Positions 31,292 to 57,238 of a stretch of 64,000 bases of DNA are shown one piece after another. The notes under the pieces were generated by a model. It searched no databases, was not told the origin of the DNA, and saw nothing but the letters and a program-made list of their open reading frames with translations. The DNA is from a virus (lineage: Duplodnaviria; Caudoviricetes). Each line of letters starts with the position of its first letter. Position 1 is the stretch's first letter. The stretch spans positions 22,932-86,931 of the IMG/VR virus record IMGVR_UViG_3300048861_000079; one strand, written 5' to 3'. The translations under genes were made by a program, and so were the position numbers.

Positions 31292-31816
31292 ATGTCATAC
31301 CCGATCAAGGTGACGCAGCAGTCCTACGACCATAAGGGCGGCACCAAGTCCTACCATTTCACGATGATCGAAGCTGCCGATGGCCGCTGCGTTGTCGTGT
31401 TTCGCTATGGCAAGAAGGGTCAGTTCGGTCAGCTCATCACTGCGACGTTTGAGACCGCCAAGGCTGCCTGGAAGCATTACGAGGCGAAAGAAAACGAGAA
31501 GCAGAAGGGCGGCTATACGCCCATCGGAACCCAGAGCACGAAGGTCGCAGGGAATCCGACTGAATTGCCCACGACCGTCGGGATCGCGCTTTTCAACAAG
31601 ATCGGCGGCAAGGCCGTCAATCACATCGATACCGGCTACGACACTTCAAAGATGCGCCAGGAAGTCGACGTGCCGACGCTTGATGAGGAAGGCCGCAAGG
31701 TCGGCGACACCAGTCGCAAGGCCGACATCAAGGATCTGCTTGCACAGCAGAAGGCTGCCGAGGAAGAACTCGCCGCCCGCGCTTATGACGACAACGAAGA
31801 ATATGGAATCTTCTGA
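31292..31816 (+). CDS. WGR-like domain protein
   Basis: KSYHF...FRYGKKGQFGQ...A..YEAK.NEK.KGGY matches the WGR layout. Confidence 0.65.
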   Translation: MSYPIKVTQQSYDHKGGTKSYHFTMIEAADGRCVVVFRYGKKGQFGQLITATFETAKAAWKHYEAKENEKQKGGYTPIGTQSTKVAGNPTELPTTVGIALFNKIGGKAVNHIDTGYDTSKMRQEVDVPTLDEEGRKVGDTSRKADIKDLLAQQKAAEEELAARAYDDNEEYGIF

Positions 31817-32337
31817 TGCCCAACCATATGCTGACCCTCGATGACAAGGCGAACCAGTTCGAGTTCGTCTGCCCGATCTTCAATGTCCAGACCAAGATGC
31901 GGCTCTGTATGACGCTGCGCGAATTGTTCTGGATGGGCAAGAAGCCTGACGTTCGCAAAGGCTGCCAGGCGTGCATGCGATCCAGCAAGTGCCCGGCCGC
32001 GGCGATCGTGAACAAGATCAGCTATTCCAGCCAGCGCCCGGCGCCCGACGAATACGGCTCAACTCAGCCTGTCGTCGGCAAGCTGCGCAAGGATATCCTC
32101 GAGCGCATCCTTCTCCCGATCGTGCTCGAGCGAACGATGGATGAATTCGGCGTGCCCGAGCCCGAACGCCAGATGATCCGCACCTCTTCCGACCGCATCG
32201 CAAAGATGGTCGGCGCAGCGCCCATCGACGGCGAAGATCGTCCGGCCACTCGTGCGGCGCCTGCAAAGAAGACCAAGTCCACCGTCAATCGCGCAGCTGC
32301 CGCTTCCGGCGACCTGGCTGCAGCTGTCAACGCCTAA
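31816..32337 (+). CDS. Cys-rich putative Zn-binding protein
   Basis: CPIF...C...CQAC...KC. Confidence 0.65.
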   Translation: MPNHMLTLDDKANQFEFVCPIFNVQTKMRLCMTLRELFWMGKKPDVRKGCQACMRSSKCPAAAIVNKISYSSQRPAPDEYGSTQPVVGKLRKDILERILLPIVLERTMDEFGVPEPERQMIRTSSDRIAKMVGAAPIDGEDRPATRAAPAKKTKSTVNRAAAASGDLAAAVNA

Positions 32338-39779: not shown

Positions 39780-41039
39780 ATGAGCGAAGCAGCTGAAATG
39801 GCCGTCGCATCCGCGACGGACAACAGGATCGTCTGTCAGATCGACAATGTTCGCGTCCACTTCATCCAGACGCACATCACCAAAAACCATCCCGACTGGA
39901 CCATCGAGCGCTATCAGGCAGAGTTTCCTGGCGCGCCGCTGATGTCCGAGCACGGCAAGTTCCTCTACGAGCGCGAGAAGGCAAGGAAAGCGGCTGCCGC
40001 AAAGACGGCCGAGGCTTCCACGCCCGCGCTTCCGGTTACGACCGCAGCAGCGTCGGCTCCGGCTGTCACCGCAGGCTATATCGGCGGCACGAAGTTCACG
40101 ACCCGCAAGGTTCCGATGTTCGAGCTGTTCGAGCTCGGCGTCACGCCGCCGCCTGCAGCGCTCAACAAGAAGGGCGCACCGATCGCAGTCGACGTGTTCT
40201 CCGGTCACGACGCCGAAAGCCTCAACTACGTGCCCGAGATCGATGACCGCTATGTGTGGAATATCGACCTTCTGAAGAAGGTCATCACCGGCCTGGCGCT
40301 CAACAAGAACGTCCTGCTCTGGGGCTATCACGGCACCGGCAAGACGTCGGTCATCAAGCAGATTTGCGCACGCACCAAGCGTCCGTTCATCCGCAAGCAG
40401 CACACCATCAACATGCAGGAGTCCGATGTCCTGGGACAGTGGACGGTCAAGGATGGCAACACTGTCTTTCAGCTTGGTCCGCTGGCGATGGCGATGATCC
40501 ACGGCTGGGTCTATTGCGCCGACGAATACGACTTCGCAATGCCGTCGGTGCTGGCAGTCTATCAGCCGGTCATGGAAGGCGAGTCGCTGATGATCGCCGA
40601 CGCGCCGCCCGAGTTCCGCAAGATCACGCCGCATCCGGACTTCCGCTTCGTCGCAACCGGCAACACCAACGGCACCGGCGATGAAAGCGGTCTTTACCAG
40701 GGCACGATGATCCAGAACTCGGCCAACTATTCGCGCTTCGGCATCACCGTCGAGGTCGAATATATGGACGCTGCGATCGAGGAGCAGATCCTCATCAGCC
40801 AGACGAAGGTCGACAAGATCTCCGCCGGCAAGATCGTCAAGCTCGCCAACAAGATCCGCGACATGTTCAAGGAAGGCAAGATCTCCACGACGATCTCGCC
40901 GCGTGAAATGATCACGGCCTGCCAGCTCGGCATCGCTTACGGCGCCGAATGGAAGCTCGGCATGGAGCTCGCTTTCTCGAACCGTCTGTCGCGCGTCGAT
41001 AAGAAGGTGTTGGAAGAATACATGGGACGGGCATTCTGA
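39780..41039 (+). CDS. CobS/MoxR-like AAA+ ATPase
   Basis: GYHGTGKT, YCADEYD, VATGN, NYSRF. Confidence 0.9.
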   Translation: MSEAAEMAVASATDNRIVCQIDNVRVHFIQTHITKNHPDWTIERYQAEFPGAPLMSEHGKFLYEREKARKAAAAKTAEASTPALPVTTAAASAPAVTAGYIGGTKFTTRKVPMFELFELGVTPPPAALNKKGAPIAVDVFSGHDAESLNYVPEIDDRYVWNIDLLKKVITGLALNKNVLLWGYHGTGKTSVIKQICARTKRPFIRKQHTINMQESDVLGQWTVKDGNTVFQLGPLAMAMIHGWVYCADEYDFAMPSVLAVYQPVMEGESLMIADAPPEFRKITPHPDFRFVATGNTNGTGDESGLYQGTMIQNSANYSRFGITVEVEYMDAAIEEQILISQTKVDKISAGKIVKLANKIRDMFKEGKISTTISPREMITACQLGIAYGAEWKLGMELAFSNRLSRVDKKVLEEYMGRAF

Positions 41040-41707
41040 TGCAGCAGATCCAGTATCGCAACTACCAGGACTCTGTGAAGCAGATCCATTCCTTCGCCGT
41101 CAAGGTTTTGCGCCGCCTGCACGGGCTCGGCGCAAAGACGCACTCGCTGGACGATGTGAAGCAGGAGCTCGCGATCGCCTGGTGCAAGGCCTGCGAAGCC
41201 TACCGTCCGGAAGGCGGCGCGTCGTTCGAGACGTTCCTCACCAACGGCATGCGCCTGCACATCAACCGCTACATCGAAAAGAATTTCGAGCGGTTCCATG
41301 ACGAGACGATCGCCCTTTCGCTGGAAGGCGGCAGCCGCTCCGACGAGTCCGGCGGCGCAAACATTTCCGGCTCCCTGAGTGAGGTCGTTGCAGATACGGC
41401 GCCGCTGCAGAACGTCGAGGTCGAAAACGAAAACTGCTTTGCCTACGCGCTGACCAGGCTGTCGCCGCGTGCTGCGCAGTTCGTCACGATCCTCAAGGAT
41501 CAGCCGAAGGAGCTCATCGAAGAGGTCCGTCGCCTGGAGGACAAGTCCGAATACGCCAGGGAGCGCGGCATCACTTATGCCACCGCGCACCGTCTCACCA
41601 CGCCCATGATCTTCGATTTCATGGGCGCCTCGCGCAATGAGCGCAAGCAGATCATGGACGAGGTCCAGCAGATCGGCGCGCTCATCCAGAACCAGGTTGC
41701 AGCATGA
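41039..41707 (+). CDS. sigma70 region-2-like transcription factor
   Basis: DDVKQEL..AW.KA.EAYRPE.GASFETFL...MR..I. Confidence 0.7.
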   Translation: MQQIQYRNYQDSVKQIHSFAVKVLRRLHGLGAKTHSLDDVKQELAIAWCKACEAYRPEGGASFETFLTNGMRLHINRYIEKNFERFHDETIALSLEGGSRSDESGGANISGSLSEVVADTAPLQNVEVENENCFAYALTRLSPRAAQFVTILKDQPKELIEEVRRLEDKSEYARERGITYATAHRLTTPMIFDFMGASRNERKQIMDEVQQIGALIQNQVAA

Positions 41708-42232: not shown

Positions 42233-45200
42233 ATGCACTCGATCCTCGCAGCGCGCACCGATTTCTCGGTCGGCGAAAGCATTCTCACGACCGAATTCCT
42301 GATCAAGAACGCTGTCGAGGCAGGCGCCAAGGCTGTCGCGATGACCGACACCATGAGCGTGACCGGCATGATCGACTTCACGAACCGCGCCAAGAAGGCC
42401 GAGTTGAAGCCGGTCATCGGATGCCGGCTGTGCCTGACCGACGCACCGGAATGGCGTCCTGACACGGGTCAGAAGAAGAAGGACATGCCGCGCTACTATT
42501 ACCTGACGGTCTACGCGCTGACCGAGGCAGGCATGAAGGCGATCTTCCGGCTGCTGACGCTCGCCAATTCCGAAAAGCGCTTCTACTATGAGGCTAAGCT
42601 TGGCTTTGATGACCTTTACGATGAGCTCCGTGCGATTGGACCTGACCAGCTTGCAGTGGTCCTTGGTGACGCGCATTCGGTTCTCGAGCATCCGGACGCC
42701 GAGAACATCGTCGTTACGATCGGCGGCTTCTGCCGTCACGCATATGCGCCGCTGGTCCCGGTCGACACGCCCTATTACGGGCGTCTCAACGAGCTGGCGC
42801 TGAATGCAATCGGCACCGGCTATGTGCAGCCGATCGTCGTTCGTCCCGCCTTCTACGGCCAGGGCGAGGCAGACGCGCAGGAGATCATGACGGCCGTTAC
42901 CGACAACCACAAGATCACCGATGGCTGGTTTAAGTCGCGGCACAATCGCGACATGCATGTTATGGGCACGCCCGAACTGGTTGGGGAAATGAAGAAGGCG
43001 ATCGCGCACCTCGGCAAGCGCGGTCTCGATGTCAGCACGGTCACGGCGAAGTTCAAGGAAGGCTTGCTCAACACCGGCGTCCTGGTCGACGCCGTCGAAT
43101 ACGAATGGAAGAAGGCCGACGTCTCCTTGCCGATCATGTCCGACAACGAGTTCGGCGCGGTCATCGATGAATGCAAGAAGGGCTGGAAGATCCGGTTCGA
43201 GCAGGTGATCTTCGGCCATCGGCCTTCGCAGGAAGACCTGATCAACATCTACAAGCCGCGTCTGGCCTACGAGCTCGAGACCCTCAAGCGCTTGAACTTC
43301 TCCGGCTACTTCCTGCTCGTGCAGGACGTCGTCCAGTTCGCCAAGTCGTCGGGTATCATGGTCGGACCTGGTCGTGGATCCGTGGGCGGATCCCTTGTCG
43401 CTTATCTGATGGGGATTACCGACTGCGATCCGATCCGCTTCGGACTGCTTTTCGAGCGCTTCATCAACCCCGAACGTATCGACTTGCCCGACGCCGACCT
43501 GGATTTCATGTCGACGCGCCGGCACGAGGTTTTCGAATACCTGACCAAGAAGTATGGCGAAGCCCGCACGGCTGGCGTCAACAACTTCGGCACGCTCGCG
43601 GCCGCTTCCGCCATGCGCGACGTCGGTCGCGTGACAGGGATCCCGGAGAAGGACTATTCCGTCTCCAAGTTCGTTCCCAAGCTGCACGGCGCCAACGTGC
43701 CGCTGCCGGAATGCCGCGTCCAGGTGCCTGAGATCGACACCTTTGCGAACAACTATCCGGAGTTCTGGCCGATTATGACCAGGCTCGAGGGCACGATCCG
43801 CAACTTCGGCCAGCATGCCGGCGGCTTCATCGTCGGTGGCGTGGATCTGACTGATCGCGCCGTGGTCGAGCGCCGCAAGGAAGGCAACGTCGTCTGCTGG
43901 GACAAGCGCATCGTTGAAGATCAGGGCTTGGTCAAGATGGATATTCTGGGTCTCGTGACCCTCGACCTCATCAAGCTTACCCTGGACTACGTGAAGGAAC
44001 GGACGGGCAAGCGCGTCGATATCATGAGCATTCCCCTCGATGATCCCGAGGTGCTCGAGAACTTCGCCAAGGCCAACACGACGGCGATCTTCCAGTTCGA
44101 GTCCGGCGGTATGCGCCGGCTGCTGAAGGATCTCGGCGCCGATGGCACCATCACCTTTGACGACATCACGGCTGCCACCGCTCTCTACCGCCCCGGCCCG
44201 ATGGAGTCCGGGATGATGGATTCGTTCGCCAAGCGTAAGCAGGGCTACGAGCCGGTCGAATATGATCATCCGCTGATGGAAGACGTGCTGAAGGAAACCT
44301 TCGGCGTCATCGTCTACCAGGAGCAGGTCATGAAGATCTCCCAGGTGATCGCCGGCTACTCGGGTGCTGCAGCTGACAAGCTCCGCAAGATCATGGGCAA
44401 GAAGCTGCCTGAGGAGATGAAGAAGGAGCGCCAGAAGTTCGTGGACGGCTGTGTCGAGACGATCGGCTGCGCGGAAGAATGGGCAGGGCATCTCTTCGAC
44501 AAGATCGAAGGCTTCGCTGGCTACGGCTTCAACAAGAGCCACTCGGTCGAATACACCCTCCTCTCCTACCAGTCGATGTATCTCAAGGTCCACTACGGCG
44601 TCGAGTTCTACGCCGCGGCGCTGACCGTGCTGAAGGAAGAAAAGCTGCCTGGCATCATCCGCGACGCAAAGCAGATGGGTATCGACGTCGGCTTCCCGGA
44701 CATCAACATCTCGACCGACAAGTTTGAGATCGCGACCGACGTGCGCCTGGTCATGCCGTTTCAGCGCATCAAGGGTATTTCCGAGCGCGCAACGACCGCG
44801 ATCCTCGCAGCGCGCCAGGCTGGCCCGTTCAAGGACAAGGCAGACTTCATCGGCCGCGTCGAGCGGCGGGTCTGCAACATCAAGGTTCAGGGTGCGCTCG
44901 ATGCTGTCGGCGCGTTCGCACGCATCGAACCCGGTCAGTTGCCGGCCAACGATCCGAGCCGCATCAAGGACCAGATTGAGCTCCTGCCTGGTCTGGTCGC
45001 CGCCCACGTTCCGGTTGATCGCGAGATGTATACCGACAAGGAGACCAAGGAGGCGATCGGCGAGCTGGTGGCGACCTACCGCGCCAATCATGGGCCTGGA
45101 TCTTCGGCGGTCGACGGAATGCCGATCAAGCCTTCGTTCGGCCGCTCGGCTGACTTTATGTTGATCCAGGACGCGCCAAACGGCGAAGATGATGGCAACG

Positions 45201-45598
45201 GCATGATGGGTCATGGCAAGGCGATCATTCCGATCATCGAAGCGATGGACCAGGTCGGGCTCGCACGTGAGAACGCCTATTGGACGGCGCTCATTAAGCG
45301 GCCGAAGCGAGGCAAGCAGGTCTCGCCGGAAGAGATCGCGACCTACTGGCCCTATCTCGAACAGGAGATCGATATTCTCAAGCCGTCGATCATCGTCCTG
45401 ATGGGCTCGCAGACGGTTCGCCACTTCATGCCCGACTTCAAGGGCAAGGCGTCCGACATGGCCGGCAAGGTGGTCTACTCCAAGACCTACGACGCCAATT
45501 TTGTGATCGGCTTCGCACCCGGTGAAATCTATCACGATCCGGACAAGCAGATGAACATGAACGAAGTCCTCGGCTCGGTCGCGGATCTGCTCGCATGA
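42233..45598 (+). CDS. dnaE: DNA polymerase III alpha (family C) with a C-terminal UDG-like domain
   Basis: GRGSVGGSL, FERFINPER..PDADLDF, KMDILGL, YGFNKSH; C-terminal ~160 aa UDG family-4-like. Confidence 0.95.
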   Translation: MHSILAARTDFSVGESILTTEFLIKNAVEAGAKAVAMTDTMSVTGMIDFTNRAKKAELKPVIGCRLCLTDAPEWRPDTGQKKKDMPRYYYLTVYALTEAGMKAIFRLLTLANSEKRFYYEAKLGFDDLYDELRAIGPDQLAVVLGDAHSVLEHPDAENIVVTIGGFCRHAYAPLVPVDTPYYGRLNELALNAIGTGYVQPIVVRPAFYGQGEADAQEIMTAVTDNHKITDGWFKSRHNRDMHVMGTPELVGEMKKAIAHLGKRGLDVSTVTAKFKEGLLNTGVLVDAVEYEWKKADVSLPIMSDNEFGAVIDECKKGWKIRFEQVIFGHRPSQEDLINIYKPRLAYELETLKRLNFSGYFLLVQDVVQFAKSSGIMVGPGRGSVGGSLVAYLMGITDCDPIRFGLLFERFINPERIDLPDADLDFMSTRRHEVFEYLTKKYGEARTAGVNNFGTLAAASAMRDVGRVTGIPEKDYSVSKFVPKLHGANVPLPECRVQVPEIDTFANNYPEFWPIMTRLEGTIRNFGQHAGGFIVGGVDLTDRAVVERRKEGNVVCWDKRIVEDQGLVKMDILGLVTLDLIKLTLDYVKERTGKRVDIMSIPLDDPEVLENFAKANTTAIFQFESGGMRRLLKDLGADGTITFDDITAATALYRPGPMESGMMDSFAKRKQGYEPVEYDHPLMEDVLKETFGVIVYQEQVMKISQVIAGYSGAAADKLRKIMGKKLPEEMKKERQKFVDGCVETIGCAEEWAGHLFDKIEGFAGYGFNKSHSVEYTLLSYQSMYLKVHYGVEFYAAALTVLKEEKLPGIIRDAKQMGIDVGFPDINISTDKFEIATDVRLVMPFQRIKGISERATTAILAARQAGPFKDKADFIGRVERRVCNIKVQGALDAVGAFARIEPGQLPANDPSRIKDQIELLPGLVAAHVPVDREMYTDKETKEAIGELVATYRANHGPGSSAVDGMPIKPSFGRSADFMLIQDAPNGEDDGNGMMGHGKAIIPIIEAMDQVGLARENAYWTALIKRPKRGKQVSPEEIATYWPYLEQEIDILKPSIIVLMGSQTVRHFMPDFKGKASDMAGKVVYSKTYDANFVIGFAPGEIYHDPDKQMNMNEVLGSVADLLA

Positions 45599-45653
45599 GC
45601 ATCCCGCACCTACGATGACAATGACGAATACGGGCAGTTTTAAGGAGCACACA

Positions 45654-46250
45654 ATGACGAACCCGACTACCGCGGATCCCGCGAATACCCCGCAGACCGT
45701 CTTCCAGGTCCGCGATTTTATCGATGCTCACCAGCTGAAGCGCGACCTCGCCTTCTCCAACAATGATCTGACCTCGGCGATGATGGAACAGGCGTCGATG
45801 TTCTCCTATTACGGCGTGCTGGCGGCGGATGCCTCCAAGCAGGTCGATGTGGTGAAGATGCTGCTCGAAAACACGGAAGCGGCTGTCTACCAGCTGGAGC
45901 GCGCCGCGGCGAACCAGGCGGCGGCAGAAGCGGCCGCCACCAAGACGCCGATCGAGAAGGTCACGGAAACGATGCTGGAAAAGCGTGTCGCCCGTCACCC
46001 GCGTGTCATCGCCATGAAGAAGGCGCTCAACGATGCCAAGCGCATCGAGGCGACCGGAAAGATCGCCGTGGAGTCATTCCGGCATCGCCGCGACATGCTT
46101 GTCCAGATGGGCCTGATCTCGCGCGAGGAGCTCAAGGGTGAGCTGCGCATCGGCGAAAAGAACGCCCGTGAGGAAGCTGCCGGCGCCCAGCGTGATCGCG
46201 CGCTCGCCGCCCTTGGACGTCGCCAGGCTGGCGGATCCGATACCGAATAA
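45654..46250 (+). CDS. UvsY-like recombination mediator (putative)
   Basis: All-helical; ASMFSYYG...KVTETML..RV...ESFRHRRDML; AGGAG RBS. Confidence 0.55.
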   Translation: MTNPTTADPANTPQTVFQVRDFIDAHQLKRDLAFSNNDLTSAMMEQASMFSYYGVLAADASKQVDVVKMLLENTEAAVYQLERAAANQAAAEAAATKTPIEKVTETMLEKRVARHPRVIAMKKALNDAKRIEATGKIAVESFRHRRDMLVQMGLISREELKGELRIGEKNAREEAAGAQRDRALAALGRRQAGGSDTE

Positions 46251-56121: not shown

Positions 56122-56145
56122 TTCCCAGCGATCGACGCGCTATAA
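56122..56145 (+). promoter_or_regulatory. class-II promoter
   Basis: TTCCC-N12-GCTATAA. Confidence 0.6.
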
Positions 56146-56180: not shown

Positions 56181-56660
56181 GTGGTTGTAAAGGGAAAGCG
56201 CCCGATCGTAATCTCGACCGACACCAAGGCGTTCATCGAGGAGTGCGGCAAGGAGATCATCGCAAAGCTGGGCGACCAGTGGTTCGAAGTCGATGGCACG
56301 CCTACCGCGACCGTGAAATACAAGGACGGCACCTTCAAGAAGAAGCCGCTGATCGCCGGCTGGAACTTCAAGCTGGAATATTGCTACGTCGGCCAGCGCG
56401 GCGCTCTGATCTTCGGCCTGACGCCGGAAGACTCCCAGGAATATGAGTTCATCGAAATGGACGCGAAGCAGATGGACACGACCTTTCCGATGGTCGGCCC
56501 CGCGGTGGCTCCCTTGTTCGCCTTGGAAGGCGAGAAGATGCACGTCATCCTCGAAGAGGTCATCGCCAAGCGCATGTCCGAGGAAGCCGAGCGCAAGAAG
56601 GTCGAGAAGGTCCAGGCTGAGACCAACTACGACGACAACGAAGAATATGGAATGTTCTGA
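56181..56660 (+). CDS. hypothetical protein (159 aa)
   Basis: AAGGA RBS, GTG start; ends YDDNEEYGMF. Confidence 0.65.
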   Translation: MVVKGKRPIVISTDTKAFIEECGKEIIAKLGDQWFEVDGTPTATVKYKDGTFKKKPLIAGWNFKLEYCYVGQRGALIFGLTPEDSQEYEFIEMDAKQMDTTFPMVGPAVAPLFALEGEKMHVILEEVIAKRMSEEAERKKVEKVQAETNYDDNEEYGMF

Positions 56661-57238
56661 TGGGTAGAATTCTGATTGCGGGCCTCGACGGCTCGCTGCG
56701 TAACTTCGGCATCGCCACCGCGTGGCTGGATCTGGAGAGCCTCGAGCTGGAGATCAGGGAGCTGACGATTATCAAGACCGCGCCGTCCAAGGACAAGCAG
56801 GTCCGCGCCTCCTCCGACAATCTGGCGCGCGCTATGGAGATCAAGACCGGCGCGCACAATGCGCTGAAGGGCGTCACGACGGCGTTCTACGAAGTGCCGT
56901 CCGGTGGTCAGGACTATCACTCGGTCCTCGGCTTCGGTATCGTCATTGGCACCTATGCCGCCCTGCCGGTGCCGGGCATGGAAGTCTCGCCCTATGAGAC
57001 GAAGTTGGCGGCTCTCGGCACCAAGACGGCGTCGAAGGAAGAGATGATCGAGTGGGCATTTGAGAAGTATCCGAACGCGCCATGGCGCACGAAGAAGCTG
57101 AAGGGTCAGATCCTTCCGACCAAGGATAACGAGCACGTCGCCGATGGCGTGGCGATTATGGAGGCCGGGATCAAGACGCCCTCATTCCAGCAGACGCTTG
57201 CGATCCTCCGGGCAAATACGATGGCTCTCGCAGCCTAA
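56660..57238 (+). CDS. ruvC: RuvC-like Holliday junction resolvase
   Basis: IAGLDGSLRNFG, YEVP, HVADGVAI. Confidence 0.75.
   Translation: MGRILIAGLDGSLRNFGIATAWLDLESLELEIRELTIIKTAPSKDKQVRASSDNLARAMEIKTGAHNALKGVTTAFYEVPSGGQDYHSVLGFGIVIGTYAALPVPGMEVSPYETKLAALGTKTASKEEMIEWAFEKYPNAPWRTKKLKGQILPTKDNEHVADGVAIMEAGIKTPSFQQTLAILRANTMALAA

Follow-up and report, generated by a model that had tools for sequence, protein, structure and literature searches.

What is the open stretch behind the stop codon of dnaE in this virus: an extension of the polymerase, a gene of its own, or what is left of one? The window, that is, the whole stretch of DNA analysed here, comprises the 64 kb at the right-hand end of a virus contig of 86.9 kb, and its bases across the end of dnaE read ...CTC GCA TGA GCA TCC CGC ACC TAC GAT GAC AAT GAC GAA TAC GGG CAG TTT TAA. 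Beyond the TGA (45596-45598) the dnaE frame translates as ASRTYDDNDEYGQF* (45599-45643 on the + strand), within which the codons of a C-terminal tag occupy positions 45611-45640. Neither ATG nor GTG nor TTG occurs in this frame between 45599 and 45643, and the stop-to-stop ORF consists of 14 codons without a start. The ATG at 45595, which overlaps the dnaE stop as ATGA, opens only the seven codons of MSIPHLR*; as the distance from this ATG to the TAA is 49 nt, the tail lies in the +1 frame relative to it and the frame is disrupted. A sequence-only reading of the locus had reported an in-frame, tag-bearing extension without a start codon, and both our reading of the sequence and a six-frame scan of the 86.9-kb contig bear this out. 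The scan found exactly three copies of the tag. Besides the copy behind dnaE, these are AYDDNEEYGIF* at 31784-31813 and NYDDNEEYGMF* at 56628-56657, both of which are true protein ends and which are identical to each other at 31/33 nt. The post-dnaE copy shares 23/33 nt with these two. Of the 10 differing positions, five are synonymous and one is a D/E exchange; three more fall in the variable x codon, and the stop is TAA instead of TGA. So close a match to the tag over 10 residues is far beyond chance and cannot be explained by it. From the synonymous differences it had been argued that the tail "is or was" translated; this is correct as far as past translation is concerned. The features of the locus and the two other tagged genes are listed in Table 1.

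Table 1. Positions of the dnaE locus features and of the two other tagged genes in the window.
Feature	Position	Strand	Description
dnaE	42233..45598	+	phage-plasmid DNA polymerase III alpha, 1121 aa, stop TGA 45596-45598; PHP, pol3 alpha, finger and HhH domains plus C-terminal UDG-like domain
Putative retained F3 start	45595..45618	+	ATGA overlap with dnaE stop, MSIPHLR*; the same overlap begins intact F3 in relatives
Putative stranded F3 tail	45599..45643	+	ASRTYDDNDEYGQF plus TAA; +1 to the retained ATG, in frame with dnaE
Shine-Dalgarno sequence AAGGAG of downstream gene	45642..45647	+	overlaps the TAA of the putative relic
Downstream gene	45654..46250	+	198 aa, phrog_2058, start ATG 45654
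F1, WGR-domain protein	31292..31816	+	ends AYDDNEEYGIF*; tagged family in 5/5 genomes compared
F2, protein without assigned function	56181..56660	+	ends NYDDNEEYGMF*; orthologue of B1VFA_154

Relatives of the window were sought in collections of phages, plasmids, IMG/VR, metagenomes and GTDB genomes, and the nearest that can be read at the DNA level share ~72% nucleotide or 69% amino acid identity with it. The Rhizobium phages B1VFA, V1VFA-S and RHph_X66 stand at ~72% nucleotide identity and the RHEph10 group at ~65%, and the related plasmids include pLM21S1-type elements. B1VFA encodes ParA, ParB and RepC, and the relatives are phage-plasmids. In many related phage-plasmids of Rhizobiales, a small gene, labelled F3 here, directly follows dnaE. 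Intact F3 begins with an ATGA overlap with the dnaE stop in B1VFA, RHph_X66, V1VFA-S and the IMG/VR loci L008-10, L012, L014 and L015 (L001-3 included), and the proteins encoded at these loci are 73-208 aa long and end in ...HYxxNPxFGAF* or, in L012, in ...IPNFGRF*. A shorter F3 of 59 aa in L013 has its own start codon and ends in ...NFGIF*; the stop of this F3 borders directly on the ribosome-binding site of the gene that follows (TGATGGAGCAGAACATG), and the layout of the window is alike (TAAGGAGCACACAATG), with tail, stop, GGAGCA... and ATG in succession. A profile built from six F3 proteins and searched against 1.84 billion cluster representatives retrieved only 15 clusters, with proteins of 59-256 aa, and 15/15 end in [FY]G.F. 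Five of these 15 clusters (59-81 aa) retain the C-terminal helix and the tag only, which indicates that the gene was repeatedly shortened from its 5' side. No gene is present between dnaE and the downstream gene in the RHEph10 group, L004-7, L011, L020, L021 and L026; F3 thus appears to be dispensable. Judged by these comparisons, F3 is a dispensable accessory gene that has been shortened or lost repeatedly, and the tail is its most persistent part. The profile search of the 1.84 billion representatives returned no F3 protein with a YDDN-type tail, and an exact degenerate search of IMG/VR for the cassette YDDN.EYG.F* gave no match. Two of the loci encode a second tagged mini-protein of 52-61 aa directly after F3 (L001, 3087-3245, B1VFA_136; L014, 2716-2901). 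The B1VFA_136-type mini-protein is very acidic, probably disordered, and looks like a natural 'tag on a string'.

The stretch behind dnaE is best read as a frameshifted deletion relic of F3, a reading to which we assign a probability of roughly 0.7. It occupies the syntenic position of intact F3, between dnaE and the phrog_2058 gene. Both ends of F3 are recognisable, namely the ATGA start and the tag with its stop, and the reading frame between them is broken, with no start codon that serves the tail. Compared with B1VFA_135 (QNG62615.1) and its homologues in RHph_X66, V1VFA-S and IMG/VR contigs, which constitute F3, the site in the window shares the position directly after dnaE, the ATGA start overlap, a C-terminal tag of the class Y..N..[FY]G.F followed by the stop, and the same downstream gene. 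It differs in that only ~5 start codons and ~12 end codons are retained, with the two pieces out of frame, and in that the tag is of the acidic YDDN-E-YG-F dialect and not of the NPxFGAF type. A relic of a deleted gene had been among the explanations proposed by the sequence-only reading, and synteny lends it strong support, as the intact tagged gene of the relatives is located in precisely this position. According to this reading, an internal deletion with a length that is not a multiple of three would have removed almost the whole of F3. What remained would be the overlapping ATG with ~4-5 codons and, shifted by one base relative to it, the final ~11-12 codons together with the stop. The tail would have come to lie in the dnaE frame by accident, for which the chance is 1 in 3. 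In the relatives, F3 is translationally coupled to dnaE through the ATGA overlap. In the window, ribosomes would stop at the dnaE UGA, and some may re-initiate at the overlapping AUG to produce the heptapeptide MSIPHLR. For its initiation, the downstream gene would rely on a strong Shine-Dalgarno sequence of its own that overlaps the TAA of the relic, and the tail would stay untranslated except for background misreading of UGA.

The state of preservation of the tail bears on the age of such a deletion. All conserved tag positions and the stop are kept, which implies a young deletion or a sequence that is still under some constraint. In a pseudogene long dead, not every one of these positions would have survived, which counts against a relic, and the ribosome-binding site of the downstream gene accounts only for the last bases. 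Purifying selection while F3 was functional, followed by a recent deletion, would explain why the tag is still intact and why its differences are mostly synonymous. We infer that the deletion is recent relative to neutral decay. Further points against a relic are that the F3 profile search retrieved no protein with a YDDN-type tail and that a single-base assembly error in the CCC run would yield an intact 15-codon ORF. In seven other genomes with ORFs examined, each of the 38 tags closes an ORF with its own start, and the third copy in the window is the only orphan. By itself, the feature would be an ordinary gene remnant, and its annotation as an extension of DnaE by read-through would be inappropriate.

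Programmed or tolerated read-through of the UGA, as also proposed by the sequence-only reading, would add ASRTYDDNDEYGQF to some DnaE molecules and create an isoform that docks on the partner of the other tagged proteins. The tail is indeed in frame, only four codons and no stop lie between the TGA and the tag, and the tag is intact. Analogies exist as well: the A1 protein of phage Q-beta is made by read-through of UGA, and E. coli DnaE has a C-terminal tail that binds a partner. Like the Q-beta case, dnaE in the window has a UGA behind which the frame stays open and leads into a functional motif that can be recognised; unlike it, the extension is not conserved behind dnaE in the relatives examined, lacks a stimulatory signal, and has a simpler visible origin as a deletion relic. 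The best 120 DnaE homologues in a set of 5.8 billion proteins share a single end position (...VADLLA or an equivalent). None of these 120 has a fused or extended form or a sense codon in place of the stop, and the C-terminal tag is absent from all of them. The nearest DnaEs (P0122-P0125) are 79-90% identical to that of the window over the C-terminal region, with identical C-termini. These four proteins are 11-14 aa longer, which is not due to a fused tail, as in P0122, the nearest of them, the additional residues are internal; relative to the DnaE of the window, P0122 has two small insertions in the PHP domain, at residues ~77 and ~116. More distant DnaE relatives have 1118-1123 aa, like the protein of the window. 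Moreover, F3 is out of frame with dnaE in most relatives, so that the in-frame relation is specific to this lineage and has a 1-in-3 chance of arising by accident. ARAGORN detected no suppressor tRNA but only tRNA-Met, tRNA-Asn and tRNA-Thr. In the dnaE/tail region there is no RNA fold that is significant against shuffled sequences (z -1.8), no Rfam family above the gathering score, and no SECIS element, promoter or terminator. A UGA followed by G is not known to be an especially leaky context. Reassignment of TGA as a sense codon was rejected, too: TGA is not avoided as a stop but is the commonest stop of the long ORFs in the contig (35/70), and dnaE ends at the same residue in relatives whose stop is TGA, TAG or TAA. 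With neither a fused tail nor a sense codon in any of the 120 homologues, no suppressor tRNA and no stimulatory RNA structure, a polymerase tagged by read-through has become very unlikely.

Alternatively, the stretch could be a tag-only micro-gene, in line with a 15-aa peptide that the sequence-only reading had proposed. If one C at 45603-45605 were absent from the true sequence, or from a variant common in the population, the ATG at 45595 would encode the 15-aa peptide MSIRTYDDNDEYGQF. This peptide would be the extreme of the F3 shortening series and would serve as a free tag that, for instance, competes or regulates at the tag receptor. This idea fits the 59-81 aa forms of F3, which retain little beyond the tail, the additional 52-aa acidic tagged mini-protein that B1VFA has beside F3, and the retention of both the ATGA coupling and the intact tag. 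However, the recorded sequence does not have ATG and TAA in one frame, as the span between them is 49 nt, and homopolymers of only three C are not prone to errors. Relatives are not known to make a functional tag peptide of 15 aa, and the Ile-Pro codons in the ATG frame match the F3 start of L012. The resemblance of MSIP in the window to MTGIP in L012, both in the ATG frame, weakly favours the CCC as genuine. Rescue by +1 frameshifting, which would take ribosomes from the ATG frame to that of the tail, was also considered and discarded, as AUC CCG offers no plausible slippery site. On balance, a micro-gene is unlikely. The tail might also not be F3's own but a portable copy of the tag that landed behind dnaE by recombination or gene conversion from, for example, F1. 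Cassettes do homogenise, as the two protein-terminal tags of the window form a 31/33-nt identical cassette including the TGATG junction, and in near relatives F1 ends in RAYDDNDEFGIF, which the tail RTYDDNDEYGQF closely resembles. The tail differs from the resident cassettes at 10/33 nt, however, and its location, with the retained ATGA start on one side and the ribosome-binding site of the downstream gene on the other, is exactly that of the F3 tail. Homogenisation of tags takes place within genomes in any case, so that F3 in this lineage is expected to end in the same dialect, and the transfer of a cassette is the least probable of the explanations weighed here. Whatever its origin, the stranded tag could still be active, either because low-level read-through of UGA tags some DnaE or because a 15-aa tag-only peptide in part of the population competes at the receptor. 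We consider such activity quite unlikely; if true, a portable C-terminal docking cassette would have been caught moving from an accessory gene to the polymerase, with a single point mutation still to go before the fusion is permanent.

For the downstream gene, AAGGAG is located 6 nt upstream of the ATG at 45654, and the N-terminus MTNPTTADP is common to the downstream protein of the window and its homologues P0001-P0011 (72-95% identity), which together identify this ATG as the true start. The locus also contains a chain of ATGA overlaps, in which the dnaE TGA and the ATG at 45595 are followed by the TGA of the 7-codon ORF (45616-18) and an ATG at 45615, the latter in the frame of the downstream gene. 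The synonymous variants GAT and AAT of the tail create the ATGs of this chain. Coupled re-initiation along the chain could yield a downstream protein that is 13 aa longer, whereas the homologues start at the position of 45654. A longer protein from the ATG at 45615 or 45621 was thus rejected, as the homologues begin at MTNPTTADP.

The tail also begins with GCATCCC, which had been noted to match the upstream box of a promoter. A motif GCATCCC-N11-13-GCTATAA(C/A) does recur ~30-45 nt upstream of gene starts in the window (50633, 51533, 60279 and 62570, and also near 56140), and it is probably read by the host sigma-70 or by a phage sigma-like protein encoded at 41039-41707. In relatives, CGCTATAATTTCAGTATC stands between F3 and the downstream gene; it is absent from the window. 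At the tail, only the -35-like GCATCCC box is present and the GCTATAA -10 box is absent, so that a promoter at this site was dismissed. The 7-mer GCATCCC occurs nine times in the window against ~8 copies expected, which is chance level. The match to the upstream box is real, and a promoter role is negligible.

The tag itself extends over the whole clade of phage-plasmids. Its form is [FYW]-G-x-F right at the C-terminal end, in most cases with Y/L-x-x-N-x-x and a charged helical stretch before it. Tagged proteins number eight in B1VFA, seven in RHEph10, six in G002, five in G001, and four each in G004, G005 and the Methylobacterium-type element G006, where the tag appears as WGMF. A degenerate DNA pattern of the tag has 4-8 matches on the coding strand per element, versus 0-2 in a reversed control. 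Once their tails are removed, the tagged proteins fall into at least eight unrelated families, and orthologues of the WGR protein (F1) and of F2 retain the tag at 40-50% identity. Hence the same motif is found on several unrelated proteins per genome and is kept in orthologues. Pfam provides no function for the tagged families other than the WGR protein, and we found no published description of an [FYW]-G-x-F tag in this phage-plasmid group in the literature. The ORF after dnaE in G006 (L067-L072) ends in ...GTWHWPERV and that in L023 in ...GTWHFPERV, which may represent a different conserved C-terminus.

The x residue and the flanks of the motif form dialects that are specific to a genome: FGAF in B1VFA and G002, FGMF in G001, FGRF in G004, G005 and RHEph10, and WGMF in G006. 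Tags of the window and of its nearest relatives follow the dialect YDDN[DE]E[FY]G[IMQ]F. Different synonymous codons encode the FGAF tags within G002, which argues that selection at the protein level, and not gene conversion alone, maintains the dialect. This pattern of tags with dialects implies either that the tags co-evolve with one receptor common to all or that the cassettes have been homogenised repeatedly. By analogy with the docking tails described below, the tag probably is a docking motif for one shared partner. In the window, the cassettes at 31784-31818 and 56628-56662 include a TGATG stop/start overlap with the next gene and use GC-poor codons (TAT, GGA). Their 31/33-nt identity suggests recent gene conversion or a constraint at the nucleotide level, for example by a ribosome-binding site that serves the coupled next gene.

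Short C-terminal docking motifs are familiar from replication proteins. The tip of E. coli SSB is DDDIPF, and gp2.5 and gp4 of phage T7 have acidic tails that terminate in Phe. The C-termini of T4 gp43, gp33 and gp55 bind the clamp, and bacterial beta-clamp motifs such as QLGLF can also be located at the C-terminus. Like these tails, the phage tag is short, occupies the very C-terminus, and combines a terminal Phe with another hydrophobic residue three positions before it; it also follows a charged linker and occurs on several unrelated proteins of the replication and early regions. In an alignment to the Pol II clamp motif, [FYW]-G-x-F pairs with L-G-L-F. However, the conserved Gln of clamp motifs is missing from the phage tag, and acidity is not conserved across the tag dialects. 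The phage DnaE, moreover, has its own canonical-looking internal clamp motif, QIELLPGL. The sequence DQIELLPGL, at residues ~913-921 (about 44969-44995), directly follows the HhH domain of this polymerase and is highly conserved, and its location matches that of the internal clamp-binding motif QADMF in E. coli DnaE. Motif conservation of this kind suggests that the phage polymerase uses the host beta clamp. Two candidates for the tag receptor were considered and set aside. For a sliding clamp of the phage, no dnaN domain was found in the contig, which is 74% complete. The UDG-like domain of DnaE is not discriminating, because every element has both this domain and the tags, including the Methylobacterium-type element with its WGMF tags.

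The wider tag system is more interesting than the relic itself, and the value of the locus lies in what it points to. It directs attention to F3, a small and fast-shrinking accessory family that is coupled to the polymerase of these phage-plasmids, and to a tag carried by 4-8 unrelated proteins per genome in RHEph10-, B1VFA- and pLM21S1-type phage-plasmids of Alphaproteobacteria. The identity of the tag receptor would reveal how these phage-plasmids organise their replication or early proteins.
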